Positions 25,690 to 56,820 of a stretch of 64,000 nt of DNA are shown one piece after another (positions within the stretch are counted from its first letter, which is position 1; every line of letters starts with the position of its first letter). The translations under genes and the position numbers were made by a program. Under the pieces are notes generated by a model. The model ran no database searches, was not told the origin of the DNA, and saw only the letters and a program-made list of their open reading frames with translations. This stretch comes from Alphaproteobacteria bacterium (GTDB lineage Bacteria > Pseudomonadota > Alphaproteobacteria > Rhizobiales > JAKIUO01), in contig JAJRPI010000056.1 in assembly GCA_024280895.1 (NCBI GenBank), forward strand, positions 29,314-93,313. Reading direction: 5' to 3'.

Positions 25690-27171
25690 TTAACTAACAT
25701 CAATCATCTCGACCGTGCCATCGGGCAGCACCTCTGCCATTTGACCACTTGGTTCATCAAGAAAGAACTGCACTGCAAGTAGTGTGACAATGGCCGCCCC
25801 GGCAATGGTCAAAAAGAATATTTTAGGAGCGACAAATGACAAAACGGTCAAGAAGATAACACCGCCGACATTGCCATAGGCCCCAACCATGCCAGCGATC
25901 TGGCCTGTCATGCGTCGCCGGATCAAGGGCACCATGCCAAATATTGCCCCCGAGCCAGCCTGACCCAGAAACGAGCATATCATGGTAATGCCTACAACCA
26001 GAGGCAGCCAAAAGGCGCTGGTGACCTGTGAGAGCACAAGATAGCCTACCACCATCCCCGCCAGCAGTACCGACAAGGTTTTTTTGCGCCCGAAGTGATC
26101 GCTGACCAGACCGCCGCCGGGGCGCGCGATCAAATTGGTAAACGCGAAGGCGGAGGCCAGTAGACCCGCTGTGATCAAGTCCAGCTCGAACACATCGGTA
26201 TAATAGAGCGGCAGCATGGAAACCACAGCCAGTTCTGATCCAAATGTCACCATATAGGCAAGATCAAGCACGGCCACCTGTTTGAAGGAATAACGCTCGA
26301 TTGCAGGCACGCTGTTTGCGAATATATGGCCGTTTATTTTATATATCTGCGCGATTTGCAGGCCATAGAGCGCCAGTAAAAGCGCATAGATTGCGTAGGT
26401 TGCACCAATGCCCAGCAGGTTCATATTGGCGGGGGATAATTTCCACGCCAGAACAGCCAGTGCCAGAAAAATCGGAGCCTGCATGAGGCAGGATAAGAAA
26501 AAATCGCCGGGACTGGAGATCTCCATCGCACCAACTTTTTTGGGTTTGAAATAGGTCGAGCCCTTTGGGGTATCGGTGACCGAGAAAAAATAGATGACCC
26601 CATAGATAAGCGCAATGAGGCCGGTTATGGCCACTGCATAGCGCCAGCCATCATCGCCGCCAATCCACAGGGCGATCATCGGCAGGCTGATGGCAGCCCC
26701 AGCTGAGCCAAAATTGCCCCAGCCGCCGTAAATCCCTTGCGCGAGGCCGGTTTGTTTGGCGGGAAACCACTCGGAGATCATGCGGATGCCAATGACAAAG
26801 CCAGCGCCAGCAAAGCCCAGTAAAAAGCGGGTCAGCGCCAGCGTCTGGAAATCCTTGGCCAGAGCAAACATGAAGCATAAAAAGCTGGAGATAATCAGCA
26901 GCGAGGAGAAGGTGTTTCTGGGGCCGAACCGGTCTACCAGCATGCCAATGATCACGCGGGCGGGGATGGTCAGTGCCAGATTGAGGATCAGCAGGGTTTT
27001 TACTTCTTGTGAGGACAGGCCAAGGGTCTCGCGGATCGAGCCGAGCAATGGCGCCATGTTGAACCAGACCAAAAAGCTGATAAAAAAGGCCATCCAGGTG
27101 TAATGCAGTATTTGAATATTGGGCCGCTTGAGCGCAAGCAGATTGAGGCTTTGAGCGGTTTGTTGTGACAT
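25690..27171 (-). CDS. narK: MFS nitrate/nitrite transporter (NNP family, NarK/NasA/NrtP type)
   Basis: 493 aa, about 12 TM helices. NNP-like Gly-rich motifs (GFAGAGFVIG, GGWGNFG, VGAYGNVGG). Sits in a nas context. Confidence 0.88.
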   Translation of the reverse strand: MSQQTAQSLNLLALKRPNIQILHYTWMAFFISFLVWFNMAPLLGSIRETLGLSSQEVKTLLILNLALTIPARVIIGMLVDRFGPRNTFSSLLIISSFLCFMFALAKDFQTLALTRFLLGFAGAGFVIGIRMISEWFPAKQTGLAQGIYGGWGNFGSAGAAISLPMIALWIGGDDGWRYAVAITGLIALIYGVIYFFSVTDTPKGSTYFKPKKVGAMEISSPGDFFLSCLMQAPIFLALAVLAWKLSPANMNLLGIGATYAIYALLLALYGLQIAQIYKINGHIFANSVPAIERYSFKQVAVLDLAYMVTFGSELAVVSMLPLYYTDVFELDLITAGLLASAFAFTNLIARPGGGLVSDHFGRKKTLSVLLAGMVVGYLVLSQVTSAFWLPLVVGITMICSFLGQAGSGAIFGMVPLIRRRMTGQIAGMVGAYGNVGGVIFLTVLSFVAPKIFFLTIAGAAIVTLLAVQFFLDEPSGQMAEVLPDGTVEMIDVS

Positions 27172-27246: not shown

Positions 27247-27515
27247 TTTCGCATATAAAATAGCAAGCCATTGATATTGCGTGAAAAATAAAGAATGGTG
27301 CCGTGCCGAGTGAGGGGGTGCCTCCCTTTTTCCTGCTCAACCAGTCGGCAAAAGATTAAAAAATAGGCACGCATGCTAGGTGATTAAATTACAGGCATAA
27401 TTTATATTAATATGCTTGAATATTAGGCCGGGAAACTTTTATATGAGGACGGTTGAAATGCTGTAAAACAAATAAAAATAAGTAAAAACAAATAGATATG
27501 AGTGATCATTTGTTC

Positions 27516-27531
27516 TGGCATGATCGTTGCA
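27516..27531 (+). promoter_or_regulatory. Sigma-54 (-24/-12) promoter for nirBD-nasA
   Basis: TGGCATgatcgTTGCA with GG-N10-GC spacing. It lies about 135 nt upstream of the nirB ATG. Confidence 0.7.
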
Positions 27532-27561
27532 AATTCATTAACGAACAGGTTTAAGACCGAT

Positions 27562-27591
27562 GCCTTGCTGAGTGCCAAGGTCAATTTTTTA
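27562..27591 (+). terminator. Candidate leader attenuator hairpin plus T-run in the nirB 5' leader
   Basis: gCCTTGctgagtgcCAAGGt followed by caaTTTTTTa. The stem is only 5-6 bp, so this is weak. Confidence 0.25.
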
Positions 27592-27666
27592 TCGTTGAAA
27601 CAGGAGCTGCGGCAGGTCTCGATAAGAGGCCGGTGGGGTCTGAAACAGCCACATGAAGGGCAAGAA

Positions 27667-30111
27667 ATGGCAAGAGAAAAGCTAGTTGTGATTGGCAATG
27701 GAATGGCAGGGATGCGCTGCGTCGAGGAGTTGCTGGAACGCGCCCGCGATCACTATGACATCACGGTGTTTGGCGATGAGCCCTATGGTAATTACAACCG
27801 CATTTTACTGTCACCGGTGCTGGCAGGCGAAAAAACCATTGATGAAATCATGCTCAATGATGAAGCCTGGTATGCTGAAAATGACATTACGCTCATTCAT
27901 GGGACCGGTAAGCGCGTTGAAGAAATCCGCCGCGACCGCAAAGTTGTGATCACGCAAGATGGCCTTGAACAGCCCTATGATCGCTTGTTGATCGCCACGG
28001 GCTCCAAGCCGTTCATGCTGCCTTTGCCGGGTGCTGATCTTGACGGGGTCATCGCCTTTCGCGACATCAAGGATGTGGACACCATGTTGGCGGCCGCTCA
28101 AACCTATAAGAGCGCCGTTGTCATTGGCGGGGGTCTGCTGGGCCTTGAAGCGGCCAATGGCCTGATGAAAAACGGCATGAGCGTTACCGTTATTCATCTG
28201 CTTGACAGCTTGATGGAGATGCAACTGGATGATGCTGCCGCCAGCATGCTTAAAGCCTCGCTCATAGAGCGCGGCCTCAAATTCGAGATGAAAGCCAGCA
28301 CCAAAGAGCTGGTCGGTACGTCACGCGTTGAAAAAGTTGTGCTGGATAATGGCAGTGAAATCGACGCTGACCTCGTTGTCATGGCGGTGGGTATTCGCCC
28401 CAATATCGAGCTGGCGCAAAAGGCCGGTATCCATTGTGAGCGCGGCATTGTTGTCGATGACACCATGCTGACTTTTGATCCAGCCGTTCATGCGATTGGC
28501 GAGTGTGCCCAGCATCGCGGTATTGCCTATGGTCTGGTGGCGCCTTTGTTCGAGCAAGCCAAGGTTTGTGCTAATCATCTGGCGCAAAAAGCGTTTGCCT
28601 CTTACAAGGGGTCGACCACTTCAACCAAGCTTAAAGTCACCGGAATTGATCTGTTTTCCGCCGGAGATTTCAAAGGCGGTGATGATTGCGAAGAGATTGT
28701 GCTGGAAGATAAAAAAGCAGGTATCTATAAAAAGATTGTGCTTGAAAATGACAAGGTCAAGGGCGCCGTTCTTTATGGCGACACCATCGATGGGGCCTGG
28801 TATTTCCAGCTAATGCGCGAGAAGTCTGACGTCTCGCAAATGCGCCGCTCGCTGATGTTTGGGCAAAGTCATGTGGGCGATAGTGGCACCGGCGGCATGG
28901 ATGTTATGAGCATGTCCGATGACACAGAAGTGTGTGGTTGTAACGGCGTTAGCAAGGGCGATATTACCTACGCCATTTCCAGTAAGGGATTGTTTACGCT
29001 CGATGATGTTCGGTCTCATACCAAGGCGTCTTCGTCGTGCGGCACCTGCACCGGGCTGGTTGAGCAGCTTTTGATGGCGACGCTGGGTTCTGACTATTCA
29101 GCTTCTCCCAGCGAGAAAGCCATGTGCAAATGCACGGATCATTCTCATGACCGGGTGCGTCGTGCTATTGTAGACAATCAGATCAAAACCATTCCAGAGG
29201 TTATGAAATTCCTCGATTGGTCAACGCCTGATGGCTGCGCATCTTGTCGCCCCGCACTCAACTATTATCTGCTTTGTGCCTGGCCGAGCGATTATGTGGA
29301 CGATGGCCAGTCCAGATTTATCAATGAGCGCGCTCATGGCAATATCCAAAAAGATGGCAGTTATTCTGTGGTGCCGCGCATGTTTGGCGGGCTTTGCACC
29401 GCTGATGATTTGCGGACCATTGCGGATGTTTCTGATAAATATGGCGTACCTGAAATGAAGGTGACGGGCGGGCAACGCATTGATTTGTTTGGCGTTAAAA
29501 AAGAAGACCTCCCCGATATGTGGGCCGATTTATCGGACGCTGGATTTGTATCGGGGCATGCTTATGGCAAGGCCATGCGTACTTGTAAAACCTGTGCTGG
29601 TGCCAACTGGTGCCGCTTTGGTACGCAGGATAGTACAGGACTTGGCGTCAAGATCGAAGAGCTTTCCTGGGGCTCGTGGATGCCGCACAAGTTCAAATTT
29701 GCCGTATCGGGTTGCCCGCGCAATTGCGCCGAGGCGACCATCAAGGACTTTGGCGTGGTGTGCGTCGATAGTGGCTATGAGCTGCATGTCGGCGGCAATG
29801 GCGGCATCAAGGTGCGCGTGACGGACTTTTTGACCAAGGTTGAAACGGAAGAAGATGTGCTGGAATGGGCAGGGGCCTTTTGTCAGTATTACCGCGAAGA
29901 GGCGCATTATCTGGAGCGTACGGCTCCCTGGATTGAACGCATTGGTCTGGCTCCTATCAAGGAAAAGCTGGAAGATGACAAGATCCGTCTTGAGCTTTAT
30001 GAGCGCTTTATCATCTCCCAGAAATCTGCGCAAATCGACCCGTGGAAAGAGCGCTCCAAGGGGGAGCTGACCAAAGAATTTTTACCGATCAAGGATCTGG
30101 TGGCAGGATGA
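27667..30111 (+). CDS. nirB: NAD(P)H-dependent assimilatory nitrite reductase large subunit
   Basis: Start MAREKLVVIGNGMAGMRCVEELL. BFD-like 2Fe-2S (CGCNG...CGTCTG). Siroheme/4Fe-4S site (CKTCAGANWCRFG ... SGCPRNCAE). Confidence 0.95.
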   Translation: MAREKLVVIGNGMAGMRCVEELLERARDHYDITVFGDEPYGNYNRILLSPVLAGEKTIDEIMLNDEAWYAENDITLIHGTGKRVEEIRRDRKVVITQDGLEQPYDRLLIATGSKPFMLPLPGADLDGVIAFRDIKDVDTMLAAAQTYKSAVVIGGGLLGLEAANGLMKNGMSVTVIHLLDSLMEMQLDDAAASMLKASLIERGLKFEMKASTKELVGTSRVEKVVLDNGSEIDADLVVMAVGIRPNIELAQKAGIHCERGIVVDDTMLTFDPAVHAIGECAQHRGIAYGLVAPLFEQAKVCANHLAQKAFASYKGSTTSTKLKVTGIDLFSAGDFKGGDDCEEIVLEDKKAGIYKKIVLENDKVKGAVLYGDTIDGAWYFQLMREKSDVSQMRRSLMFGQSHVGDSGTGGMDVMSMSDDTEVCGCNGVSKGDITYAISSKGLFTLDDVRSHTKASSSCGTCTGLVEQLLMATLGSDYSASPSEKAMCKCTDHSHDRVRRAIVDNQIKTIPEVMKFLDWSTPDGCASCRPALNYYLLCAWPSDYVDDGQSRFINERAHGNIQKDGSYSVVPRMFGGLCTADDLRTIADVSDKYGVPEMKVTGGQRIDLFGVKKEDLPDMWADLSDAGFVSGHAYGKAMRTCKTCAGANWCRFGTQDSTGLGVKIEELSWGSWMPHKFKFAVSGCPRNCAEATIKDFGVVCVDSGYELHVGGNGGIKVRVTDFLTKVETEEDVLEWAGAFCQYYREEAHYLERTAPWIERIGLAPIKEKLEDDKIRLELYERFIISQKSAQIDPWKERSKGELTKEFLPIKDLVAG

Positions 30112-30452
30112 ATAATATGAACAGCAAACATTGGATTGAAATTGGCCCCCTCAAGGACATTGCCGTGAAGGGCGCGCGCATCGTCAAGCATGCGGGCGGT
30201 GATATCGCCATTTTTCGCACCAGTGAAGACGAGGTCTACGCATTGGATAATAAATGCCCGCACAAAGGCGGCCCCTTGTCCGATGGCATCGTGCATGGTT
30301 GCCGCATCACCTGTCCCTTGCATAACTGGGTGCTGGAATTAAAGACCGGCAAGGCTGTCGCTCCCGATGAAGGGGAAGCCAAGACCTGGCCCGTCAAAGT
30401 TGAAGATGGCCTTATTTATCTGGGCACCGAAGATGATGTGGCGTTCGCGTAA
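30108..30452 (+). CDS. nirD: Nitrite reductase small subunit (Rieske-like)
   Basis: ATGA overlap with the nirB stop. CPHKGGPLSDG...CPLHNW. Confidence 0.9.
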   Translation: MNNMNSKHWIEIGPLKDIAVKGARIVKHAGGDIAIFRTSEDEVYALDNKCPHKGGPLSDGIVHGCRITCPLHNWVLELKTGKAVAPDEGEAKTWPVKVEDGLIYLGTEDDVAFA

Positions 30453-30478: not shown

Positions 30479-32683
30479 ATGTTATTTGGACGCGCAAAAA
30501 AGAACCCAGTGAAGATTGCCGACAAGGGGATCGTCGATTGGAAATATGCCACTTGCGGCTATTGCTCCACCGGCTGCTCCATTGAGGTTGGTCTGAACAA
30601 AGAGGGCAAGGCTGTGAGCTCGCGCGGCGTTGGTGGCGCGGATGTCAATCGCGGCAAGCTATGTCTCAAGGGCATTTTTGAACATGAATTATTCGACAGC
30701 GATGGGCGCGGCACCACCCCCATGATGCGCGATCATTATCATGAGGATTTTGCTCCAACGAATTGGGACACGGCACTGGATCGTACCCATGACGAGATCC
30801 GCCGCATTCAGGAAAAATATGGTCGCGACAGCTTCGCCATTATCTCCACCGGTCAGATGCTCACCGAAGAGTTTTACACGCTTGGCAAGCTCACCCGTGG
30901 TCTCATTGGCACCAATAATTATGACGGTAATACAACGCTTTGCATGAGTTCGGCCGTTTCTGGTTACAAGCGCTCCTTTGGCTCTGACGGTCCTCCTGGC
31001 TGTTATGAGGATTTTGAACATACCAATTGCCTCGTTGCATGGGGTTCCAATCTGTCCGAGCAGCATCCAATCATTTACTGGCGTATGAAAGACGCGCAGG
31101 AAAAACGCCCGTTCCCGCTCATTGTCATTGATCCGCGCGTCACCATGCTGGCCCAAAATGCCGATATGCACCTACCCATTACACCCGGCACCGATGTGGT
31201 TCTGCAAAATGCCTTGATGCACGTCATCTTGAAAGAGGGACTGGAGGACCGGCGCTATATCGACGCCAATACCAATGGCATCGCGCAGCTTGAAGCTGAG
31301 GTCGCCAAATATGATCCCGTCACCGCAAGTAAAATCTGCGGTATTGATGAGGACACCATCCAGACGGTGGCACGCCTGTTCGCCAAGGCCGGTGCGGCCA
31401 TGCAGATCTGGACAATGGGCATCAATCAAAGCACGCATGGATCAGATGGCGTGGTGGGCATCAATAATCTGGCGCTGATCACTGGCAATATCGGCAAACC
31501 GGGCGGCACTTCGCTTTCGATCACTGGTCAATGTAACGCAATGGGCACCAGAGAATGGTCGTCCTGCTCGGGATTGCCGGGATATCGGGCTTTGGAAAAT
31601 CCAGAGGACCGCGAGGAGATAGGTAAATTCTGGGGCTGTGATCCAGAGTTCTTTCCCAAAAAGCGCGGGCTTTATCAAACCGATATCTATCCCGCTATCG
31701 AAACCGGCCAGATCAAGGGCCTATGGTTGATCGCCACCAATCCCTTGAGCTCTTTGCCCAATACGGCGCGCATCAGAAAAAGTATGGAGCGACTGGAATT
31801 TTGTGTGGTGCAAGATTGCTATAAGGATACCGAAAGCGCGCAATATGCCCATGTCTATCTGCCAGCTGGTACCTGGGCGGAAAAAGAAGGGGTGATGACC
31901 AATACCGAGCGCCGGGTCAATATCGTCAAACCCATCATGAAGCCCCCCGGGGACGCCAAGCCCGATCTGTGGATTTTTAACCAGATGGCCAAGCGCTTCA
32001 ATCTGGATAAAAAGCTCAGCTTTCCTGAAAAAGCCGCTGATATTTTTCTGGAGATGACCAGGCTTTCCAAGGGGCGGCTGTCCGACATCACTGGTATGAA
32101 CCATGAAATGATCGAGAAAAACCGCGGCGTGCAATGGCCTTATACAGCGGAGCAGGCGGCTTCAGGCGAGGCACCGCCCAAAGGTGGCAAGCGGATCTAT
32201 ACCAAAGATGGAACCTTCAGTTATAAGGACGGCCGCGCCAAGCTGATCCCGCTGCCCTTTATTGATAATAATGAAGTGCCGGATGAAAAATTCCCGTTCT
32301 GGCTTAATACCGGCCGCTTGATCGAGCACTGGCACGGCCGCACCAAGACCGGCAAAGTGGCCGATAATAATAAATATGTGCCTATTCCCTTTATCGAGAT
32401 TAATCCAGATGCGGCTAGAGAGCTTGGCGTCCGGACCGGGGAATATGTGCGGCTGGTGTCGCGTCGTTCTGACGCCATTGTCATGGTCACGCCAACCGGG
32501 CGCGTCCCAAAAAACATGGTGTTCCTGCCATTCCATTTTTTCGATTGCGCCAACCGCTTGACCCTTGGCCTGCTCGACCCTCATTCGCGCCAGCCAGCCT
32601 ATAAGCAATCGGCCATCCGCATCGAGAAATTACCCGATCAGGCTGAGGCGGCAAAAGCCAGCATGGAAATGAGAGAATTTTGA
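30479..32683 (+). CDS. nasA: Assimilatory nitrate reductase-like Mo-bisPGD catalytic subunit (no Tat leader)
   Basis: N-terminal 4Fe-4S ligands CGYCSTGC...LCLKG. Molybdopterin oxidoreductase body. C-terminal FLPFHFFDCANRLTLGLLDPHSRQPAYKQSAIRIEK. No RR signal. Confidence 0.8.
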   Translation: MLFGRAKKNPVKIADKGIVDWKYATCGYCSTGCSIEVGLNKEGKAVSSRGVGGADVNRGKLCLKGIFEHELFDSDGRGTTPMMRDHYHEDFAPTNWDTALDRTHDEIRRIQEKYGRDSFAIISTGQMLTEEFYTLGKLTRGLIGTNNYDGNTTLCMSSAVSGYKRSFGSDGPPGCYEDFEHTNCLVAWGSNLSEQHPIIYWRMKDAQEKRPFPLIVIDPRVTMLAQNADMHLPITPGTDVVLQNALMHVILKEGLEDRRYIDANTNGIAQLEAEVAKYDPVTASKICGIDEDTIQTVARLFAKAGAAMQIWTMGINQSTHGSDGVVGINNLALITGNIGKPGGTSLSITGQCNAMGTREWSSCSGLPGYRALENPEDREEIGKFWGCDPEFFPKKRGLYQTDIYPAIETGQIKGLWLIATNPLSSLPNTARIRKSMERLEFCVVQDCYKDTESAQYAHVYLPAGTWAEKEGVMTNTERRVNIVKPIMKPPGDAKPDLWIFNQMAKRFNLDKKLSFPEKAADIFLEMTRLSKGRLSDITGMNHEMIEKNRGVQWPYTAEQAASGEAPPKGGKRIYTKDGTFSYKDGRAKLIPLPFIDNNEVPDEKFPFWLNTGRLIEHWHGRTKTGKVADNNKYVPIPFIEINPDAARELGVRTGEYVRLVSRRSDAIVMVTPTGRVPKNMVFLPFHFFDCANRLTLGLLDPHSRQPAYKQSAIRIEKLPDQAEAAKASMEMREF

Positions 32684-33858
32684 TGTTTAAAACACGAAGC
32701 GACGAACCAAAATACGCTCATTTATGGGATAAAGAAACCAAGCTTGCCAATATTTATGGCGATACGATCGACCTTGTCGAGGGCAGCGATCTGCCAGCCG
32801 ATCAAAGCCTCAATATTAATGGCGATGGTTCGGTCGGCGACAATCCCAACCGCAACAAGCAACACGGTTTTTATTTCACCGCTGATAATTGCATTGGTTG
32901 CCATGCCTGCGAAGCGGCCTGTTCTGAAAAAAACGACAATCCCTCACATATCGCTTTTCGCTCGGTTGGTTTTGTGGAAAGCGGTAGCTATCCAGATTAC
33001 AACCGCCTCAATATCAGCATGGCTTGCAATCACTGCGATGATCCCGTTTGCCTGAAGGGTTGCCCAACGCGGGCCTACACGAAATTTGCCGAATATGGCG
33101 CGGTGCTGCAAGATCCTGACATTTGTTTTGGCTGCGGCTATTGCACCTGGGTCTGTCCCTATAACGCCCCGCAGCTTGATCCGGTTAAAGGCGAAGTGAG
33201 CAAATGCAATATGTGTGTTGATCGCTTGGAAGTCGGTCTTAAACCAGCTTGCGTTTCCGCTTGCCTTGGTAATGCGCTGGACTTTGGCGTCATCGAGAAT
33301 GTTCCTGAGCGCCGCGAGCAGGCCAAGGTGCAAATTCCCGGGTTTCCTGATCCAGGGATCAGCCATCCCAATATCCGCTTTTCTCTGTCGCGCACGCTGC
33401 AGAGGGTGTTCACCCGTCCCGACAGCGCGCCGCTCAAATATGTACGTGAGGGAGATGGTTTTAATCCTGTGGTCAATGAGGCGGCAGGCGTTGGCGAGCG
33501 CCAATGGAATCTCAAATCTCTGCTCACCAGCCATGAAAATGCGCATATTGTTTTCACGCTCTGCACGCAGGCGGTGATGGGGGCCTTTCTTTTGGTGCTG
33601 CTGGGTGGCTGGCTCGATCAGCCCTTATATACAACGGAGTTGTTTGTGCCTGTGATGGCCGCGCTGGTCGGCCTGTTGGGCTTTGGTCTGGCGGTGCTCA
33701 ATCTGCATCTGGGTAAGCCCATGCGGTTTTATCGCGGTTTCAACAATTGGCGCCTGTCGCCGGTGAGCCGCGAAATCGCCGGTGTGTCGCTGTTTTTTAC
33801 AGCCCTTTCCGGCTATGCCTTTTCGGCCTTCTGGGATCGCAATATCTGGGTATGCTGA
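32683..33858 (+). CDS. DmsB/NrfC-like 4x[4Fe-4S] polyferredoxin fused to about 3 TM helices of a DmsC-like anchor
   Basis: TGATG overlap with nasA. Four Cys clusters (CIGCHACEAAC; CNHCDDPVCLKGCP; CFGCGYCTWVCP; CNMC..ACVSAC). C-terminal helices follow (IVFTLCTQAVMGAFLLVLL, FVPVMAALVGLLGFGLAVL, IAGVSLFFTALSGYAFSAF). Confidence 0.75.
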   Translation: MFKTRSDEPKYAHLWDKETKLANIYGDTIDLVEGSDLPADQSLNINGDGSVGDNPNRNKQHGFYFTADNCIGCHACEAACSEKNDNPSHIAFRSVGFVESGSYPDYNRLNISMACNHCDDPVCLKGCPTRAYTKFAEYGAVLQDPDICFGCGYCTWVCPYNAPQLDPVKGEVSKCNMCVDRLEVGLKPACVSACLGNALDFGVIENVPERREQAKVQIPGFPDPGISHPNIRFSLSRTLQRVFTRPDSAPLKYVREGDGFNPVVNEAAGVGERQWNLKSLLTSHENAHIVFTLCTQAVMGAFLLVLLGGWLDQPLYTTELFVPVMAALVGLLGFGLAVLNLHLGKPMRFYRGFNNWRLSPVSREIAGVSLFFTALSGYAFSAFWDRNIWVC

Positions 33859-34499
33859 GTGCCCATAGCGTTGACCTGCTGATTGTTTTGCCAGGACTGG
33901 GGGCGGTTCTGGGGGCGGTTGTTGGTCTTTATTACATGATCAAACTCTATCTTATTCCAGCGCGGCCTTTCTGGAACCACTGGCAAACAGCCAGCAGTTT
34001 TGTCGGCTCTGCCATCACCCTTGGCATGCTTTTGTTAAGCAGTCTGACGGTTCTGGCTCAAGGGTTTCATATGGAGGTGAGAGCGGTGGCGCTGATATTA
34101 CTCGCCGGGCTAATGCTGGAAGCTATCGGCCTTGCTTTCCATGCACGCACCATGAAGCGGCAAGGCGGCGAAGGGGCGGCGTCGCATTTCGAACAAGTGA
34201 CGCGCTATGGCTTCCCCTATTTGTTACGTAATTTGTTGCTGGGGGGAAGCATTGTCTCCCTTGTCGGTGTCGCCCTATTCGGTTTGCCATTGGGAGGGGC
34301 AGGCATCGCCATTACCTTGCTGCTTGCTCTGTCTATTCTAGCAAGCGCCATTATCGGGCGCGCCCTGTTCTATGTGCTCGTCATTCCAACGACCATGCCG
34401 GGGGGCTTCTTCTGGCGCAATAAGGGCTTTGAGGAGCACGCAATTGAAACGGGTCTGGCTGATAAAATTCACGCCGGAATTGTTACGGGCAAGCATTGA
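33852..34499 (+). CDS. DmsC/YnfH-like membrane anchor, C-terminal portion (about 5 TM)
   Basis: ATGCTGA overlap with the previous gene. Very hydrophobic 215-aa product. It could be a separate coupled gene or the 3' part of one frameshifted gene. Confidence 0.6.
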   Translation: MLSAHSVDLLIVLPGLGAVLGAVVGLYYMIKLYLIPARPFWNHWQTASSFVGSAITLGMLLLSSLTVLAQGFHMEVRAVALILLAGLMLEAIGLAFHARTMKRQGGEGAASHFEQVTRYGFPYLLRNLLLGGSIVSLVGVALFGLPLGGAGIAITLLLALSILASAIIGRALFYVLVIPTTMPGGFFWRNKGFEEHAIETGLADKIHAGIVTGKH

Positions 34500-34828: not shown

Positions 34829-36109
34829 TCAAGTACCAAACATGTCTTTGGTGATGGCGTTGTACCAGCCAAAGAACTCTGCATAGGTTTGCTGGCGAAG
34901 CTGATCGCTTTCGCCGACCTTGGAGATCAGTTTGGACGTTGGCTCGATCTTGGTTTTACCAGCTTTATAGGTGGCACCGACCTTGATACCGTCATCAATG
35001 GCAAGGAAGCTCCAGCAGGTATTAGCATATTTGGCCGGGAAGGTCCGCGATCCAAGCAGTACACCGCGCACAGCCATGGCGCATGATTTGGCCTGCGAGT
35101 TGGCGGAGAACCCTGATTTTGGCATGGAAGCCGCAATACTCGTATCGCCGATCACATAGATATTAGGATCAACCGTTGATTGCATGCTGCCGGGTTTGAT
35201 TGGTGCCCATCCCGTTTTGTTGGTGAGGCCGGCATCTTTGGCAATGCGTCCACCGGTCATGGCAGGGATGACGCAACCAGCGTCTGCTTTGAAATTATCG
35301 AGACCGGTTTCGAATGTCATATTATCGGTATCGACGCGTTTTATTCCATCCAGCGATGACAGAGGATTCCATTCGATCATATCGCCATAATGACGTTTCC
35401 AACCGTCTTGGAATAGCGCCATTTTGGAGAATTTATCTTTGGGATCAAGAATGATGATCTTGGCTTTTGGATTGTGATATTTGAAATGATGCGCAATCAT
35501 CGAGACGCGCTCATATGGTCCTGGAGGACAGCGATACGGATTTGGCGGGGTCAGCATGACAAAGGTGCCGCCCTGTTTCATCGTGGTAACGCGGTTCTTG
35601 AGGAATTGTGCCTGCGTACCCGACTTCCAGGCATGCGGGAAAGTTCCAGAGCCAGAGACAGAATAGCCTGGCACGCTGTCATACTTAATATCGATGCCTG
35701 GTGAGACAATCAAGATATCGTAGGGAATGGAAGAGCCGCCACCAAGTACAACTTTTTTGCCGGCGCGATCAATGCTTGTTGCCCAGTCATGAACGACATT
35801 GATGCCGAACTTGGAGGCCAGCTTGTCATAGGAATGACCAATGCTTTCATATTTGCGGAAGCCGCCAATATAGAGATTTGAGAAGAAGCAGGTATAATAG
35901 CGTTTGGTCGGCTCCAGCAGAGTGACCTCTAGCTTGCCTTTGGAATCCTTGGCGAGATAACGCGCAACGGTCGCGCCGCCGGCTCCACCACCGATTACCA
36001 CAACTCTAGGTCTCCCAGCTCCAAACACGGCGCCAGTATTGGCGCTGAGCCCCAAAGTCAGGGCAGCAGCTCCTGTTAGTTTGCCGAATTGCCTTCGGTT
36101 CATTGTCAT
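34829..36109 (-). CDS. fccB: Flavocytochrome c sulfide dehydrogenase, flavoprotein subunit (FccB/SoxF type)
   Basis: Tat leader MTMNRRQFGKLTGAAALTLG. FAD motif VVVIGGGAGGATVARYL. FCSD-like body. Confidence 0.85.
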   Translation of the reverse strand: MTMNRRQFGKLTGAAALTLGLSANTGAVFGAGRPRVVVIGGGAGGATVARYLAKDSKGKLEVTLLEPTKRYYTCFFSNLYIGGFRKYESIGHSYDKLASKFGINVVHDWATSIDRAGKKVVLGGGSSIPYDILIVSPGIDIKYDSVPGYSVSGSGTFPHAWKSGTQAQFLKNRVTTMKQGGTFVMLTPPNPYRCPPGPYERVSMIAHHFKYHNPKAKIIILDPKDKFSKMALFQDGWKRHYGDMIEWNPLSSLDGIKRVDTDNMTFETGLDNFKADAGCVIPAMTGGRIAKDAGLTNKTGWAPIKPGSMQSTVDPNIYVIGDTSIAASMPKSGFSANSQAKSCAMAVRGVLLGSRTFPAKYANTCWSFLAIDDGIKVGATYKAGKTKIEPTSKLISKVGESDQLRQQTYAEFFGWYNAITKDMFGT

Positions 36110-36178
36110 CTCATTACTCCCTGTTTTGCGCCTCAATAGTCCATAGACTATTGATCGTTTTATCTGTTGCCTGTGAGG

Positions 36179-36499
36179 CTACTCAGTCGGCTCTACTGGT
36201 TTAATCGTTGCAAAATAAGCGGCAAGCGCTTCCATTTCTTCTGTTGTCATCGGCTCGGTTATCATCCGCATGACCGGATTTTCCCGTTCTTTGGCCTGGT
36301 AGGATTGCAAAGTCTTGACAAAGGCTTTGGTGTCCCAGCCAACAATTGAGGGGATCCCATTATCAACGCCGGTCAACTGATGGCATGTGACACAGGCCGT
36401 TGACAGATATTCCCCATACGCAATATCGCCTTCGCCATGTGCAGATATTGACCCGATCATCAGTGCTGCAAGTAACGTGAATAGGCGAACCATTGGCAT
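36179..36499 (-). CDS. Monoheme c-type cytochrome (FccA/SoxE-like partner)
   Basis: Signal peptide. Single CVTCH heme motif. Located 70 bp upstream of fccB on the same strand. Confidence 0.7.
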   Translation of the reverse strand: MPMVRLFTLLAALMIGSISAHGEGDIAYGEYLSTACVTCHQLTGVDNGIPSIVGWDTKAFVKTLQSYQAKERENPVMRMITEPMTTEEMEALAAYFATIKPVEPTE

Positions 36500-51980: not shown

Positions 51981-52289
51981 TTAATGAGCTGCTTCCAGCG
52001 TCGGGATGTTTGTGACATCCGTTTCTCGCTTGGCATGCCAGAGATCATAAGCTGCTTGCATGTTTAGCCATACTTCCGGGCTATTGCCGAGCAATTTGCC
52101 GATACGTACGGCCATCTGTGAAGTGACCGGCTGCTTTTCAGATATAATATCATAAAGCGTTTGCCGCGAAATACCCAGATCACGCGCCAGTTGGGCCTTG
52201 GGAGTATCCAGAGCCGGAAAGACAATATCACGCAATAGTGCACCGGGATGCGTCGGACACCGCTGCGGATTTCTTGTTATTTTTGTCAT
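51981..52289 (-). CDS. higA: HigA-family antitoxin (XRE HTH)
   Basis: HPGALLRDIVFPALDTPKAQLARDLGISRQTLYDIISEKQPVTSQMAVRIGKLLGNSPEVWLNMQAAYDL. Confidence 0.8.
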   Translation of the reverse strand: MTKITRNPQRCPTHPGALLRDIVFPALDTPKAQLARDLGISRQTLYDIISEKQPVTSQMAVRIGKLLGNSPEVWLNMQAAYDLWHAKRETDVTNIPTLEAAH

Positions 52290-52322
52290 GTTACTTCTCC
52301 AACTCCCCGCTGAAAGTGAACA

Positions 52323-52610
52323 TTAAATAACTAGTTCAATGTCGACATCAATAGCGCTGTCATCCTCCCAGTCATATGAAAGGCGCCAGCCAATCGCGAC
52401 AATGACGTCATAACGTTCGCGCTCAACTTCTTTGAACTGATAGCGTCTTAGCCCTGGAACAAACATGTCTTCGGGTTTCACTGCAGCATCCAGAAGGTCG
52501 AGGACCTGTGCAACCGTTTGTGTTAGTTCTGTCGGGACTGATTTTATGTCATCTCCTCTTGTCCAGAATTTTTCTAGTTCGTCGTTTCGAAAAGACTTGA
52601 TCATCTTCAT
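52323..52610 (-). CDS. higB: HigB-type (RelE/ParE superfamily) toxin
   Basis: Start at the internal MKMIKSFRNDELEKFWTRG (classic HigB N-terminus). The 78 aa upstream in the long ORF look non-coding and AT-rich. Confidence 0.7.
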   Translation of the reverse strand: MKMIKSFRNDELEKFWTRGDDIKSVPTELTQTVAQVLDLLDAAVKPEDMFVPGLRRYQFKEVERERYDVIVAIGWRLSYDWEDDSAIDVDIELVI

Positions 52611-52934
52611 AGCTCCGCTGCTATCGCTTTCGCGATTGTTTAAGCACCGGAGAGATGCCCAAGAGTCAAACTCCATCCCTCCAAATTCAAATGTTATAGG
52701 CTCCATACTTTCTTTACAATGTAAGGTATTAGAAGTCATGTGTCTACTAAGACCATACGTTTTGTCTAACATCATCTCTCGACCTTCGTCGGGATGACGT
52801 TTTTTGTTGTGTTGGGGGACGTTGCTATAATCTTTTTCATTCACACATAAGTATTTGCTTTGGGCTGGTAAATTTGCCCCGTTTGACTTATACGGTCCGT
52901 AAAGATTATTTCCTCGCTAACAAAGGACCTCCCC

Positions 52935-53885
52935 ATGCCCACAAACCTCAAGAAACTGTTTGATGCCGAGCCTAAATCGCCGCTTTATGTGGCGGTCAAT
53001 CGGGTGCTGGTTAAAAACGATCCCAACTTGATGAAAATGATGAAGCAGGCCAGCGCTAAAATGTGTTTGGCGACGGCGCTTTCTCCCGGCTTCAAGGGCT
53101 TTGATCTGATGGGGCAGATCGGCTCTTGCCCTATGGGCATGCGCTGGGCGGCCAGTTCTGACATGCGCGAGGAGCTGTCGCATATCTGGATCGACCAGAT
53201 CACCTATTGGGACAGCTGGGAAGAACATGAAAAATTTCATGAGACCTTTGAGGATGTGGTGGTGGAAGCCTGTGCGCGCTGCGGTGACGTGCTGCTCGAT
53301 GGCCCTGAAGAACCGGTTTACCGCATTGTTGCGAGCAAATTGCCCAAGCTGATCTCCAAGAACCAGATGCTTAAAATGGGTTTTGACAATAAAGGCGACA
53401 CATCGGGCTATGCCATGGATAGCGGTGAAACCGTCACCGTCATGGCCCAGCATTTGCTGCGCCCCGGCAAGGAGGATATTTTCGAAAAAGCCGAAGTGCA
53501 GGTGATGGACAAGCTGATGAACACCAGCGGCGTGCTGGGCTATCAGATCTTGAAGCGCATTGGTTTTTCGACGCTTGGCAGTGGACATGCGACGACGCAA
53601 AGCATGATGGCCGATATGATCTCACCGTCTGGGCAAAACCTCAAACGCACAGCCGAAGTCTGGGAGGGCTATACGGTACCGGCGCAATATCTGGTGATGG
53701 TGGAATTTGACAGCCTGCAAGCGGCGCAGCGCGGCATGCCGCACGTTAATGTCAATCCAGAAATGCTGTTCATCCATGGGCCAAAGGTGTTTGATAACCT
53801 GCTCAGAATGCCCAGCGTTTATATTTCAGGTTCCATGTTCGCTGAACATACTTATCGCGAAGTTTTGCAGGGCAACAAGAAATAA
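52935..53885 (+). CDS. sor: Sulfur oxygenase reductase (SOR) homolog
   Basis: 316 aa. Collinear with archaeal SOR landmarks: Cys44 (KMCLATA), His98-x3-His102 (HEKFHE), Cys113-x2-Cys116 (CARCG), Glu126 (EEPVY). Also ITYWDSWEEH and QYLVMVEF. Confidence 0.8.
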   Translation: MPTNLKKLFDAEPKSPLYVAVNRVLVKNDPNLMKMMKQASAKMCLATALSPGFKGFDLMGQIGSCPMGMRWAASSDMREELSHIWIDQITYWDSWEEHEKFHETFEDVVVEACARCGDVLLDGPEEPVYRIVASKLPKLISKNQMLKMGFDNKGDTSGYAMDSGETVTVMAQHLLRPGKEDIFEKAEVQVMDKLMNTSGVLGYQILKRIGFSTLGSGHATTQSMMADMISPSGQNLKRTAEVWEGYTVPAQYLVMVEFDSLQAAQRGMPHVNVNPEMLFIHGPKVFDNLLRMPSVYISGSMFAEHTYREVLQGNKK

Positions 53886-53952: not shown

Positions 53953-54543
53953 ATGAAAAAATTGAGAATTGCGATTATATGGCTGTTCGCGCTGCTGATG
54001 CTCGGCGGTATGACCAGCCCTGGTCAGGTCGACAATGCTCAATTGGCCGATCTGCAAAGCAGTTTGGACATGTATAAGAAAGTCTCGATGGCACGTGATG
54101 TGGACGGATTATTGTCCTTTTTGCATCCCGGTGTGTTTACGCGTGAGCCAAAAGAGCAGATGCGAAAAATGATGACGGAGGCTCTCGCCAATGGCAAAGC
54201 CCCCGCAATGCACAAGATTGAGTTCCAGATCATCAGCCCTGTGCAGCCCTTTAGTCAGGGTGTTTTTGTTCGTGTGGGAGCATTGAGCGAGTTGACCATG
54301 ACACGCCCGGGGGATGTGACACCGCAAATAGATGCCTTGATGGTTGATCTCATTAAAGAGCGTATGGGCGAGGTTGAAACCTCAATTGACGAGCAGAAAA
54401 ATGTCATTGTGATCAAGAAAAATTCCTGGATGCTTGGCGTCAAGCAAGAGGGGGCGGGCTGGAAATTTATTGATCAGCACCGGATCGGATTTTTCTTTGA
54501 TAATAAATTACTGCCCGCTGATCTTATGAGCATGGTGCAATAG
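53953..54543 (+). CDS. Hypothetical secreted protein
   Basis: Signal peptide MKKLRIAIIWLFALLMLGG. 196 aa. No recognised domain. Confidence 0.5.
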   Translation: MKKLRIAIIWLFALLMLGGMTSPGQVDNAQLADLQSSLDMYKKVSMARDVDGLLSFLHPGVFTREPKEQMRKMMTEALANGKAPAMHKIEFQIISPVQPFSQGVFVRVGALSELTMTRPGDVTPQIDALMVDLIKERMGEVETSIDEQKNVIVIKKNSWMLGVKQEGAGWKFIDQHRIGFFFDNKLLPADLMSMVQ

Positions 54544-54546
54544 GCA

Positions 54547-55731
54547 TTAGATCCTTTGCAGCACGAAAAATATTGCAAAGGCCAGAGTGGCGGCGACCGG
54601 CAGGGTAATCAGCCATGCAAGCACGATCTGGCGGATCATCTGCCAATGGGCGGAGCGGTTGGCAATGCCGATGCCAAACAGGCCACCGACCGAGCAATGG
54701 GTGGTTGAGACGCCCCAGCCAAAAACAGCCGAACCGGTAACGAGAATGGAGGTCACCAGATTGGCGGTGAAACCTTGACCTGCATTCATGTCGGCGATCT
54801 TGTGGGCCAGCGTATCGGCGATGCGGCCAGCGGCCAGATAACCGCCCAGCGCCATTGACACGCCAACCAGCGCAACCCCCCAGACAAGGCTTGAAGGGTT
54901 CGACAGCGCCACGACGCCAGATCCCACCAGCAGACCTGTGATCTTTGCGGTGTCTTGTAGGCCCCGCGCAAAGCCAACGGTGCCAGCGGTTAGAAAATGC
55001 AGAGCGTTGATCAGTTTCTCGGCGCTAAGGCCGATCATCTGGCCTTGGTAGCGCTGGCGGCAATGAGGCTCATCCCCCACCACGACGCGCAGTCCCGTGG
55101 GGATCATGTGCTCACCGCACGACGAGTGCATGGACAAGGTGCCGTCTTTATTCACAACGGGATGTAGTGGCGGCATATTGATCGCCACGACATGTTCGCT
55201 TTGGGCAATGCAGACACAGGTTTCACGATGAATACCAAGCTTCTTGCGGGTGGTGGTAAAGATGTAATAGAGGCCAAGCGTCAACACGAGGGCCAGCAGC
55301 GGGGCGACCAGCAAAGGCAGCGCGAAACGCGAGCCGAGCAAGAGCAGCTCGACACCGCCAGGCGCAATCAGACCAGCACCCACCAGCCCGCCAACAATCG
55401 CATGGGTGGTGGAAATGGGAAAGCCAAGCCTGGTGGCCAGAAACACGGTGCTCGCAGAGGCCAATGTCACAGACAGTAAAAAATCAGGGTCAGCCAGCAC
55501 TTGGGCCTCCACAAGCCCCTTGCCGCTAAACGCCTTGATCAGCGCCGTGCCCAGTAACAAAGCGGCGAGCGATCCAGCCAGTGTCGTCACCATGGCCCAG
55601 GTAATGGCGGTTTTGTAATTGGTGGTGCGGCTGGCAAACAGTGTCGCAACGCCCTTGAAATTATCATTTGCCCCATTGGAAAAAGCCAGCCAGGCAACGG
55701 CGAGCAGCATAAGGACGAGCGAAATTGTCAA
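54547..55731 (-). CDS. PiT-family (PHO4) inorganic anion permease
   Basis: GANDNFKGVATL near the N-terminus and STTHCSVGGLFG in the C-terminal half match the duplicated PiT signature. Confidence 0.8.
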   Translation of the reverse strand: MTISLVLMLLAVAWLAFSNGANDNFKGVATLFASRTTNYKTAITWAMVTTLAGSLAALLLGTALIKAFSGKGLVEAQVLADPDFLLSVTLASASTVFLATRLGFPISTTHAIVGGLVGAGLIAPGGVELLLLGSRFALPLLVAPLLALVLTLGLYYIFTTTRKKLGIHRETCVCIAQSEHVVAINMPPLHPVVNKDGTLSMHSSCGEHMIPTGLRVVVGDEPHCRQRYQGQMIGLSAEKLINALHFLTAGTVGFARGLQDTAKITGLLVGSGVVALSNPSSLVWGVALVGVSMALGGYLAAGRIADTLAHKIADMNAGQGFTANLVTSILVTGSAVFGWGVSTTHCSVGGLFGIGIANRSAHWQMIRQIVLAWLITLPVAATLAFAIFFVLQRI

Positions 55732-56010: not shown

Positions 56011-56820
56011 ATGCAAAGAATTATTGCAACATTTTCAATGCTCATGCTTGTGGCATTTGCGTCTGTGTCGGGGGCTGTCGCCGGTGAGCTGAAAATTAAA
56101 GACCTTAAAAAGGGCGATGGTGCCATAGCCGTTATCGGACACAAGGTTTCCGTACACTATACGGGGTGGCTCCTTGACGGTAAAAAGTTTGATTCAAGCC
56201 TTGATCGCGGTAAGCCGTTCAGTTTTACCCCCGGTCAGGGACGCGTGATCCAGGGTTGGGAAAAAGGCGTGTTAGGCATGAAGGTTGGTGGCAAGCGCGA
56301 GCTGATCATCCCGCCCGAACTTGGCTATGGCAAACGCGGCGCCGGTGCTGCCATTCCCCCCAATGCGACTTTGAAATTTGAAATTTCATTGCTCAAGGTG
56401 GAAGCGCCAAAATTTAAAAATCTCTCCAATAGCCAGCTCAAGGACGAACTTAAAAAGGGCACGGTCATTTATGACATTCGCCTCCCCAAAGAGTGGAAGA
56501 AAACCGGCATCATCAAGGGTAGCCGCCTGTTGACATTCTTTGATGAGCAAGGGCAGATCAACCCCGATTTTCAGGATACATTCTCCAAGCAGGTGAAGAA
56601 AACTGACAATGTGATTTTGATTTGTCACGTCGGCAACCGGACCAATGCCATCTCTAATTTTCTCGCAGAACGTGCAGGCTATAAGGGTGTCATGAACGTC
56701 ACCAAAGGTATCACCCATTGGATCAAGGAAAAGAACCCGGTTGTTACGGCAGAAATTCCTAAAGATTGTTGGTTGTGCGGCGAGCGTGTGAATATCAAAC
56801 GGGGCTCAGGGGCCCAGTAA
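56011..56820 (+). CDS. Secreted FKBP-type peptidyl-prolyl isomerase fused to a rhodanese domain
   Basis: Signal peptide. FKBP core (VSVHYTGWLLDGKKFDSS...VIQGWEKG...PPELGYG). C-terminal rhodanese with active-site loop CHVGNRT. Confidence 0.8.
   Translation: MQRIIATFSMLMLVAFASVSGAVAGELKIKDLKKGDGAIAVIGHKVSVHYTGWLLDGKKFDSSLDRGKPFSFTPGQGRVIQGWEKGVLGMKVGGKRELIIPPELGYGKRGAGAAIPPNATLKFEISLLKVEAPKFKNLSNSQLKDELKKGTVIYDIRLPKEWKKTGIIKGSRLLTFFDEQGQINPDFQDTFSKQVKKTDNVILICHVGNRTNAISNFLAERAGYKGVMNVTKGITHWIKEKNPVVTAEIPKDCWLCGERVNIKRGSGAQ

Follow-up and report, generated by a model that had tools for sequence, protein, structure and literature searches.

Archaeal sulfur oxygenase reductases (SORs) come from thermoacidophilic hosts, and the stretch of alphaproteobacterial DNA analyzed here (64,000 nucleotides, hereafter the window) raises the question of what an apparent SOR gene, sor, does in a mesophile-like bacterium. 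SORs in mesophilic bacteria (HnSOR and TpSOR), a solved structure from the subfamily of the enzyme, and the presence of sor in vent Hyphomicrobiaceae are already on record, as is the wide occurrence of the subfamily among marine and soda-lake sulfur oxidizers. Our analysis suggests, with a probability of roughly 0.85, that the gene encodes a functional, cytoplasmic SOR of the TpSOR type, which likely disposes of or oxidizes sulfur(0) in a Hyphomicrobiales host.

The 316-aa reading frame of the original prediction (Table 1) is present as described, opening with ATG and closing with TAA in both the ORF list and a codon check, and no second sor copy was found in the window. Rfam and tRNA scans over the window were empty, and an automatic promoter and terminator scan gave no more hits than shuffled sequence, with nothing convincing for sor. 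An extended -10-like element (TGCTATAAT), which falls in the 330-bp divergent intergenic region between higB and sor, is a candidate sor promoter that the scan missed because its -35 match is weak. The N-terminus of the protein (MPTNLKKLFDAEPKSPLYVAVNR), judged by eye, carries neither a hydrophobic nor a Tat signal, so that SOR is predicted to be a soluble cytoplasmic protein.

Table 1 Coordinates of sor, its sequence features and neighboring genes in the window.
Feature	Position	Strand	Basis or remark
FCSD flavoprotein FccB	34829-36136	-	Tat-type signal (RRQFGK...); 17 kb from sor
Monoheme cytochrome c, preceding FccB	36179-36499		
HigA	51981-52289	-	Upstream of sor
HigB	~52326-52604	-	Upstream of sor
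Extended -10-like element TGCTATAAT, candidate sor promoter (inferred)	52823-52831	+	Found by eye; ~100 nt upstream of start
Shine-Dalgarno-like AAGGA (inferred)	52923-52927	+	Read from sequence; 7 nt 5' of ATG
sor CDS, predicted TpSOR-type sulfur oxygenase reductase	52935-53885	+	ORF list, Pfam, PDB, Foldseek, dN/dS
N-terminal extension, subfamily-specific, ~13 alignment columns (residues 1-12 and 14-17)	52935-52982	+	Alignment with AaSOR/StSOR
Cys44 codon, counterpart of the persulfide-forming essential Cys31 (AaSOR/StSOR)	53064-53066	+	Alignment; 79/79 clade sequences
Cys65 codon, fourth subfamily-invariant cysteine	53127-53129	+	79/79 in clade; Leu in AaSOR, Val in StSOR
Segment with iron ligands and Cys113-x2-Cys116 pair	53226-53312	+	Alignment; all invariant in 79/79
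His98 codon	53226-28	+	Aligns to His86
His102 codon	53238-40	+	Aligns to His90
Cys113 codon	53271-73	+	Aligns to Cys101
Cys116 codon	53280-82	+	Aligns to Cys104
Glu126 codon	53310-12	+	Aligns to Glu114
FKBP-rhodanese fusion	56011-56820		Signal peptide; CHVGNR active-site loop

Profile and sequence searches, which had been proposed as a check of SOR-family membership, returned significant matches far beyond chance. The Pfam profile PF07682 (SOR; EC 1.13.11.55) scored 204.9 bits (cutoff 25; E = 1.7e-60), with residues 17-307 covering profile positions 2-299 of 300, and every match in a PDB sequence search was a SOR chain (E = 1e-36 to 2e-146): entry 9rdn at E = 2e-146 and ~68% identity, and the canonical SORs (6m35, 2cb2 and its mutants, 3bxv, and 6qpa) at E values of ~1e-36 to 1e-41. 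The AF2 model, built on a shallow alignment, was of moderate confidence (pLDDT 65.5, pTM 0.69; residues 25-85 and 107-123 poor). Compared by Foldseek with a PDB set without 9rdn, its best 10 matches were all SORs (TM 0.70-0.73, E 1e-18 to 1e-21), followed by a gap and then by generic ABM/ferredoxin-like proteins (TM < 0.5); the model shows the SOR monomer fold, in which two ferredoxin-like halves make up a beta-barrel core enclosed by helices. On the NCBIfam SOR equivalog model (NF047630), the protein scored 167.6 bits against a 400-bit cutoff, which marks it as a SOR-family member that is not of the canonical archaeal type. The collinearity with the Acidianus enzyme first noted thus extends over ~295 residues, but the Acidianus SOR (~32% identical) is not the closest kin, and the true relatives are bacterial (9rdn, ~68%). 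Together, these comparisons indicate that the gene encodes a genuine SOR of the bacterial Thioalkalivibrio-type subfamily and that, at 32% identity to archaeal-type SORs, its product is not a canonical one.

The predicted active site is intact. In HMMER and MAFFT alignments, Cys44, His98, His102, Cys113, Cys116, and Glu126 pair with Cys31, His86, His90, Cys101, Cys104, and Glu114 of AaSOR/StSOR, and these six residues, named as catalytic landmarks before any search and now checked codon by codon, are invariant in 79 of 79 clade sequences, as are the Zn-site residues His173 and His281. StSOR mutants of the same catalytic residues are inactive or reduced about 10-fold, and C31A abolishes activity (PMC7398979). 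The two conserved blocks that had been pointed out, ITYWDSWEEHEKFH and QYLVMVEF, were also found in the translation, beginning at residues 89 and 251, respectively.

SOR had been described as best known from thermoacidophilic archaea and a limited set of chemolithotrophic bacteria, but the subfamily found here is not so limited. From 5.8 billion proteins, 419 homologs were recovered; among the 120 listed, identities were 68-96% and the named sources were Gammaproteobacteria, Chromatiales, and Thiotrichales MAGs. Scanning a single genome for each GTDB species, we found relatives encoded in at least 100 candidate stretches, and 72 of the 80 loci kept are labeled gammaproteobacterial (Thiotrichaceae/Cocleimonas/Thiothrix, Chromatiaceae, Ectothiorhodospiraceae/Thioalkalivibrio, and Sedimenticolaceae), with another four labeled Alphaproteobacteria or Hyphomicrobiaceae. 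Cultured mesophiles are among these 80 loci (Cocleimonas flava, Halochromatium roseum, and Lamprobacter modestohalophilus), and the clade is found chiefly in sulfur oxidizers that live lithotrophically. When 1.84 billion representatives at the 50%-identity level were searched exhaustively, no more than 61 matched at E <= 0.001, most of them as fragments, and the whole TpSOR-type subfamily is represented there by essentially a single full-length sequence; the SOR superfamily is therefore small. Intermediate homologs in this set (P0275-P0277) are 35-36% identical to the window SOR.

The proposed phylogenetic check agreed with the profile searches: a neighbor-joining tree placed the window SOR inside the bacterial TpSOR-type clade, which a very long branch parts from AaSOR/StSOR, and, inside that clade, in a sub-clade of its own that branches close to the base. 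Since the SORs of Thioalkalivibrio loci are 89-91% identical to 9rdn, the solved structure probably comes from that genus; literature searches for PDB 9RDN and for a SOR with Cys44 found no paper. The NCBI SOR equivalog model misses this entire subfamily, an annotation gap that explains why close orthologs have been deposited as 'hypothetical protein'.

The window SOR carries the signatures of the subfamily in columns invariant in at least 78 of 79 sequences: an N-terminal extension of ~13 residues, Cys65, Phe302, His83, His270, and the lack of Arg at position 111. Within the extension, Lys6, Glu12, Ser15, and Leu17 hardly vary among the 79 aligned sequences; Asp10 and Pro13 are invariant in a 31-sequence sample (A1). 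Several of these signatures touch the routes by which substrate is proposed to reach the active site. Met297 (archaeal numbering) is replaced throughout the clade by Phe (Phe302 here) while Met296 is kept (Met301), and the trimer-channel Arg99 is replaced by Asp, Glu, or Thr across the 79 sequences (Glu111 here). The chimney residues Phe133/Val137/Phe141 correspond to Met145/Gly149/Asp155, followed by a 7-residue deletion, in a part of the alignment that is uncertain. The canonical set of access-route residues (Arg99, Met296/Met297, and, subject to that uncertainty, the chimney) is thus not retained, and these changes (Arg99 to Glu, Met297 to Phe, apparent loss of the chimney lining) count against the explanation that we favor, as does the score below the NCBIfam equivalog cutoff.

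A bolder reading of the same changes, which we consider tentative and rather improbable, is that TpSOR-type SORs form a separate, mesophile-adapted branch. Its cage routes would have been re-engineered (acidic residues for Arg99, Phe for Met297, a truncated chimney, and the N-terminal extension), with Cys65 in the catalytic pocket, and its members would act as pure cytoplasmic sulfur dioxygenases, providing the main route by which stored or imported S0 is oxidized at ~20 °C in Hyphomicrobiales that have Sox without SoxCD. If so, the near-basal alphaproteobacterial sequences would mean that the subfamily is not simply of gammaproteobacterial origin.

The alphaproteobacterial, mesophile-like setting first described held up. 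Named relatives of UvrB, encoded just upstream of sor, are almost exclusively Hyphomicrobiales (70-76% identity; Hyphomicrobiaceae and Methyloligellaceae MAGs, Breoghania, Pseudovibrio, Stappia, Hartmannibacter, and Methyloraptor), and unnamed MAG proteins match it at 88-96%. The window also encodes TrcR (PF06242), which we take to be an alphaproteobacterial cell-cycle regulator family. The IVYWREL proxy, computed over 15,589 residues, gave an optimal growth temperature of ~20 °C, a rough value that is clearly not thermophilic. The host thus belongs to the Hyphomicrobiales and is probably a mesophile.

Two MAGs labeled 'Alphaproteobacteria bacterium' from the Dive100 chimney on the Southwest Indian Ridge (L001 and L002) are collinear with the window from uvrA/uvrB to MAPEG at 79-91% DNA identity, sharing uvrA/uvrB, sor, a gene for a 196-aa protein, PiT, the FKBP-rhodanese fusion, an M28 peptidase, guaB, and MAPEG, so that three species-level genomes carry sor in one and the same uvrB-sor-PiT slot. 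SOR is 97.5% (L001) and 95.9% (L002) identical at the amino-acid level, close to UvrB (98.4% and 95.9%), and the 196-aa ORF downstream of sor, which has a signal peptide, evolves fast (88% identity to L001, 32% to L002). Against these two genomes, dN/dS was 0.033 for sor, 0.034 for IMPDH, and 0.019 for UvrB, and the dS of sor against L001 (0.49) lies within the range of its neighbors (0.39-0.53). Codon-usage fit (-1.008) is comparable to that of UvrB, GuaA, and LeuC, and both G+C and GC3 match core genes. The claim of a host-like G+C therefore stood (52.4% in sor, 51.6% in the window), but the ~62% first quoted for it came from a local, unrepresentative 60-nt sample, as 60-nt windows within the gene range from 38 to 67%. 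The host-like codon usage, shared slot, and low dN/dS indicate a functional gene, kept under purifying selection and passed on vertically since the divergence of these species.

These data bear directly on the notion that sor is a recent or decaying passenger that arrived with the adjoining higBA mobile module and is irrelevant at ~20 °C since SORs are thermozymes. Such a history would fit the anomalous composition of higBA, the patchy distribution of SOR in Proteobacteria (with the four alphaproteobacterial loci among 80), and the ~80 °C optima reported for SORs of mesophiles. The gene, however, matches the core genome in G+C, GC3, and codon usage, occupies the same slot in three species while higBA is absent from that slot in L001 and L002, shows a dN/dS of 0.033 with dS equal to its flanks, and retains an intact ORF and active site. 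Composition, synteny, dN/dS, and dS have already largely refuted the passenger account, which we regard as highly improbable, and recent horizontal transfer of sor together with higBA was rejected on composition, synteny, and dS. The higBA module does lie beside sor, upstream and on the minus strand, but its absence from the sister genomes speaks against a functional partnership, and it is unrelated variable cargo. An older transfer between Alpha- and Gammaproteobacteria, in either direction, is likely because of the patchy distribution.

To look for conserved neighbors, we clustered ORFs within 7 kb of sor at 81 loci, and none was common to more than about 10 of them; nor was a sulfur-transfer or sulfite-oxidizing partner linked to sor in any lineage. 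We therefore consider sor a stand-alone gene. The only 13-locus 'family' near sor in these loci was an antisense ORF within sor itself. A Mo-oxidoreductase/FeS/DmsC cluster elsewhere in the window (30479-34499) was considered as a SoeABC-type sulfite sink, an identity that was not established: its best NCBIfam matches were Fdh-alpha and NasC, all below cutoff.

The isolated position of sor amid housekeeping genes, with no conserved sulfur-gene neighbors across the 81 loci, lends some weight to a housekeeping rather than dissimilatory role, in which an enzyme that keeps the fold and iron site, with its substrate access re-engineered relative to archaeal SORs, would detoxify intracellular sulfane sulfur (polysulfides and protein or low-molecular-weight persulfides). 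The invariant Cys65 and the alteration of all proposed access routes throughout the subfamily point the same way, as does the fact that SOR conserves no energy (PMC12345210), and PMC6382920 describes the function of TpSOR in vivo as undetermined. We nevertheless consider this role unlikely, since a high in vitro turnover of elemental sulfur is reported for TpSOR (cited in PMC6382920 and PMC6060420), the clade occurs chiefly in lithotrophs that oxidize sulfur, and the host encodes FccAB.

The latter also underlies a reading close to the proposal made originally, that a canonical SOR with balanced oxygenation and disproportionation releases substantial H2S for re-oxidation by periplasmic FCSD. 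The FCSD and rhodanese genes are real, but their products are not functional partners of SOR: FCSD lies 17 kb off, both proteins carry export signals, and synteny is lacking across the 81 loci. FccB and the FKBP-rhodanese fusion are predicted to be periplasmic and SOR is not, so that coupling is plausible only through the flow of sulfur in the cell as a whole. Balanced activity is a possible reading, though on present evidence a doubtful one. The catalytic residues are exactly those found in enzymes that carry out both reactions, FccAB is encoded in the window, and one locus (L013) has an FccB-like gene ~1 kb upstream of sor; weighing against these, the sole characterized member of the subfamily, TpSOR, is reported to have atypically low reductase activity (PMC6382920), and FCSD is distant, periplasmic, and generally not syntenic with sor.

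In the reading that we prefer, a TpSOR-type enzyme that consumes sulfur(0) in the cytoplasm, the assembly into a 24-mer, the substrate, the ratio of products, and the role in the cell are inferred. As in SORs that have been solved and mutagenized, subunits would assemble into a hollow homo-24-mer, and zero-valent sulfur would enter its chamber, probably as linear polysulfide or persulfide, to be bound covalently as a persulfide on Cys44. Oxygenation by O2 at the mononuclear non-heme iron (His98, His102, and Glu126) would yield sulfite, with thiosulfate arising non-enzymatically; the disproportionation half-reaction would release sulfide in minor or variable amounts, and in minor ones if the enzyme resembles TpSOR. 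Most likely, the role in the host would be to dispose of or oxidize sulfur(0) arising from periplasmic sulfide and thiosulfate oxidation, by FccAB in the window host and by Sox without SoxCD in the sister MAGs. A 2022 study of a Southwest Indian Ridge chimney reported sor and the absence of soxCD in Dive100 Hyphomicrobiaceae MAGs (PMC9769843), and the lack of soxCD should favor S0 formation, making a sensible niche for SOR. The reaction would conserve no energy, its products feeding other sulfite- and sulfide-oxidizing enzymes. Because the characterized SORs of mesophiles have optima near 80 °C, the rate of the window SOR at ~20 °C may be low.

The importance of the locus is modest, in that it adds a vertically inherited Hyphomicrobiales member to a subfamily dominated by Gammaproteobacteria. 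Yet strong purifying selection (dN/dS 0.033) argues that sor does something important in its mesophilic host despite belonging to an energy-wasting enzyme type with an optimum of ~80 °C. Residual interest attaches to the subfamily-specific Cys65 and channel changes and to the role of SOR at ~20 °C, and a host with such an estimated growth temperature would be well suited to the search for a cold-active SOR.

Among known systems, TpSOR (Ruhl et al. 2017, J Bacteriol 199:e00675-16) is the closest counterpart. TpSOR is reportedly 29-34% identical to other SORs with Cys44 as its essential cysteine, and both traits match the clade of the window SOR. The link between TpSOR and the clade rests on these reported traits and on the likeness of 9rdn to Thioalkalivibrio loci. 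TpSOR/9rdn and the window SOR are alike over their full length (~68% identity), in the ~13-residue extension (hence the same Cys44 numbering), and in Cys65, the Phe at Met297, the loss of Arg99, and the short chimney; both genes stand alone in mesophilic hosts. They differ at position 111 (Thr in 9rdn, Glu here) and in their hosts, a haloalkaliphilic gammaproteobacterium for TpSOR and a Hyphomicrobiales bacterium of a vent-type lineage here. TpSOR, from the mesophile T. paradoxus, has been characterized: it is active as a 24-mer and has its optimum as well as its melting point at ~80 °C (PMC6060420). A predominantly oxygenase activity (reductase below 1%) is also reported for it. Entry 9rdn holds 8 chains, as does the crystal of the 24-meric StSOR (6m35), where they are the content of the asymmetric unit (PMC7398979).

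The archaeal SORs (Acidianus ambivalens, 2cb2; A. tengchongensis, 3bxv; and Sulfurisphaera tokodaii, 6m35) are collinear with the window SOR over ~295 residues (TM 0.70-0.73) and identical to it in the iron triad, three cysteines, Zn-site histidines, and Met296. They are, however, only 31-33% identical overall, a distance matched by the failed NCBIfam equivalog cutoff, and come from thermoacidophiles rather than a mesophile; the window SOR has in addition the N-terminal extension and Cys65, with Glu for Arg99, Phe for Met297, and loss of the chimney residues Phe133/Val137/Phe141 ahead of the 7-residue deletion. HnSOR of Halothiobacillus neapolitanus (6qpa) sets a precedent for a SOR of the same fold in a mesophilic proteobacterium, but groups with the canonical type (128 bits and 24-25% identity to the window SOR in structural alignment). 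Persulfide dioxygenases (PDO/ETHE1/SdoA) are likewise cytoplasmic, O2-dependent enzymes with a 2-His-1-carboxylate non-heme iron that oxidize sulfane sulfur to sulfite and conserve no energy in doing so (PMC6060420, PMC12345210), though they have an unrelated metallo-beta-lactamase fold, need a thiol carrier (GSSH), and form small oligomers instead of a 24-mer cage.

The nearest genes of all are those of the Dive100 Hyphomicrobiaceae MAGs (L001-L003), at 93-97% amino-acid identity to the window SOR. The uvrB-sor spacer holds higBA in the window; in L001 it encodes a membrane protein of 362 aa, and in L002 it is empty, while the L003 copy sits in another neighborhood with housekeeping flanks, its product (MCF6198634.1) being one of those labeled 'hypothetical protein' at NCBI. 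It is from sor in these Hyphomicrobiaceae MAGs, the closest relatives of the window, that sulfur disproportionation has been inferred (PMC9769843).

The SOR superfamily is small, with only 61 representatives among the 1.84 billion 50%-identity representatives searched. The orthologue of the window SOR in a Hyphomicrobiaceae MAG (locus L003), although 93% identical, carries the NCBI label "hypothetical protein", which fits the scores of the TpSOR-type (the bacterial subfamily of the Thioalkalivibrio SOR), far under the NCBIfam cutoff: the SOR equivalog is set at 400 bits and the window protein, of this type, reaches 168 bits. This is consistent with a systematic annotation gap. The search also returned three SOR homologues with 35-36% identity, P0275 (409 aa), P0276 (565 aa) and P0277 (392 aa), which exceed every characterised SOR by 80-250 residues, have additional sequence at the N-terminus and may be intermediate or fused forms within the superfamily.

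Comparison of the window with two sister-MAG loci (L001 and L002) shows that the spacer between uvrB and sor is a variable cargo slot, occupied differently in each (see table). On the other side, no terminator was found between sor and the ORF that starts 67 nt 3' of it, which encodes a secreted, fast-evolving protein (88% identity to L001, 32% to L002; dN/dS 0.125) matching no Pfam or NCBIfam family. In this lineage sor keeps a PiT/PHO4-family transporter gene as its 3' neighbour, in L001 and L002 as well as in the window; some PiT-family members, such as CysP of B. subtilis, carry sulfate, but nothing seen here ties this transporter to sulfur. Further downstream, an FKBP-type PPIase-rhodanese fusion (92% identity in L001, 86% in L002) retains an intact catalytic loop, CHVGNR, and has an N-terminal signal peptide, and is therefore periplasmic. 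The only sulfur gene seen adjoining sor was in L013, an "Alphaproteobacteria" MAG locus whose SOR is 75% identical: there, genes for an FccB-like flavoprotein (its ORF, as called, cut at the N-terminus) and a Rieske-like protein lie directly upstream.

Elsewhere in the window, a molybdopterin oxidoreductase cluster adjoins both nirBD and fccAB. The oxidoreductase resembles NasC/Fdh-alpha and, having no Tat signal, is cytoplasmic; next comes a DmsB-like 4Fe-4S protein, which continues into or overlaps a DmsC-type membrane anchor, possibly through fusion or frameshift. Every NCBIfam match to the cluster fell under cutoff, and its architecture, odd for an assimilatory nitrate reductase, is reminiscent of Soe/Psr-type complexes. 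The nitrate-assimilation cluster contains, immediately downstream of NarK, a gene fusing a PP2C phosphatase to a Ser/Thr protein kinase.

Features of the window and of compared sor loci
Feature	Sequence	Coordinates	Strand	Remark
PP2C-kinase fusion	window	23973-25676	-	
NarK nitrate/nitrite transporter	window	25690-27171	-	
nirBD	window	27502-30452		
Molybdopterin oxidoreductase/4Fe-4S/membrane-anchor cluster	window	30479-34499	+	
DmsB-like ORF	window	32680-33858		
DmsC-type ORF	window	33747-34499		
fccAB	window	34829-36499	-	
higBA	window	51981-52604	-	in slot; G+C 45-50%, poor codon fit
Cys65 codon of sor	window	53127-53129		within G-S-C-P-M-G
Secreted 196-aa protein	window	53953-54543	+	
PiT/PHO4-family transporter	window	54547-55731	-	
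FKBP-rhodanese fusion	window	56011-56820	+	
362-aa multi-pass membrane protein	L001	1912-3000		in slot
Empty slot	L002	9441-9907		
SOR orthologue MCF6198634.1	L003	2543-3487		
FccB-like flavoprotein	L013	758-1591		
SOR	L013	2737-3663		

Several residues set the TpSOR-type apart. A fourth cysteine, Cys65, is kept in all 79 aligned TpSOR-type sequences (79/79), whereas archaeal SORs have Leu/Val52 at this position. His83 is a further subfamily-invariant change, as are His270, whose counterpart in the Acidianus ambivalens enzyme (AaSOR) is Arg266, and Phe302, which stands in place of the archaeal Met297. Position 111, corresponding to AaSOR Arg99, varies across the subfamily among Asp, Glu, Thr and Asn but is never Arg.
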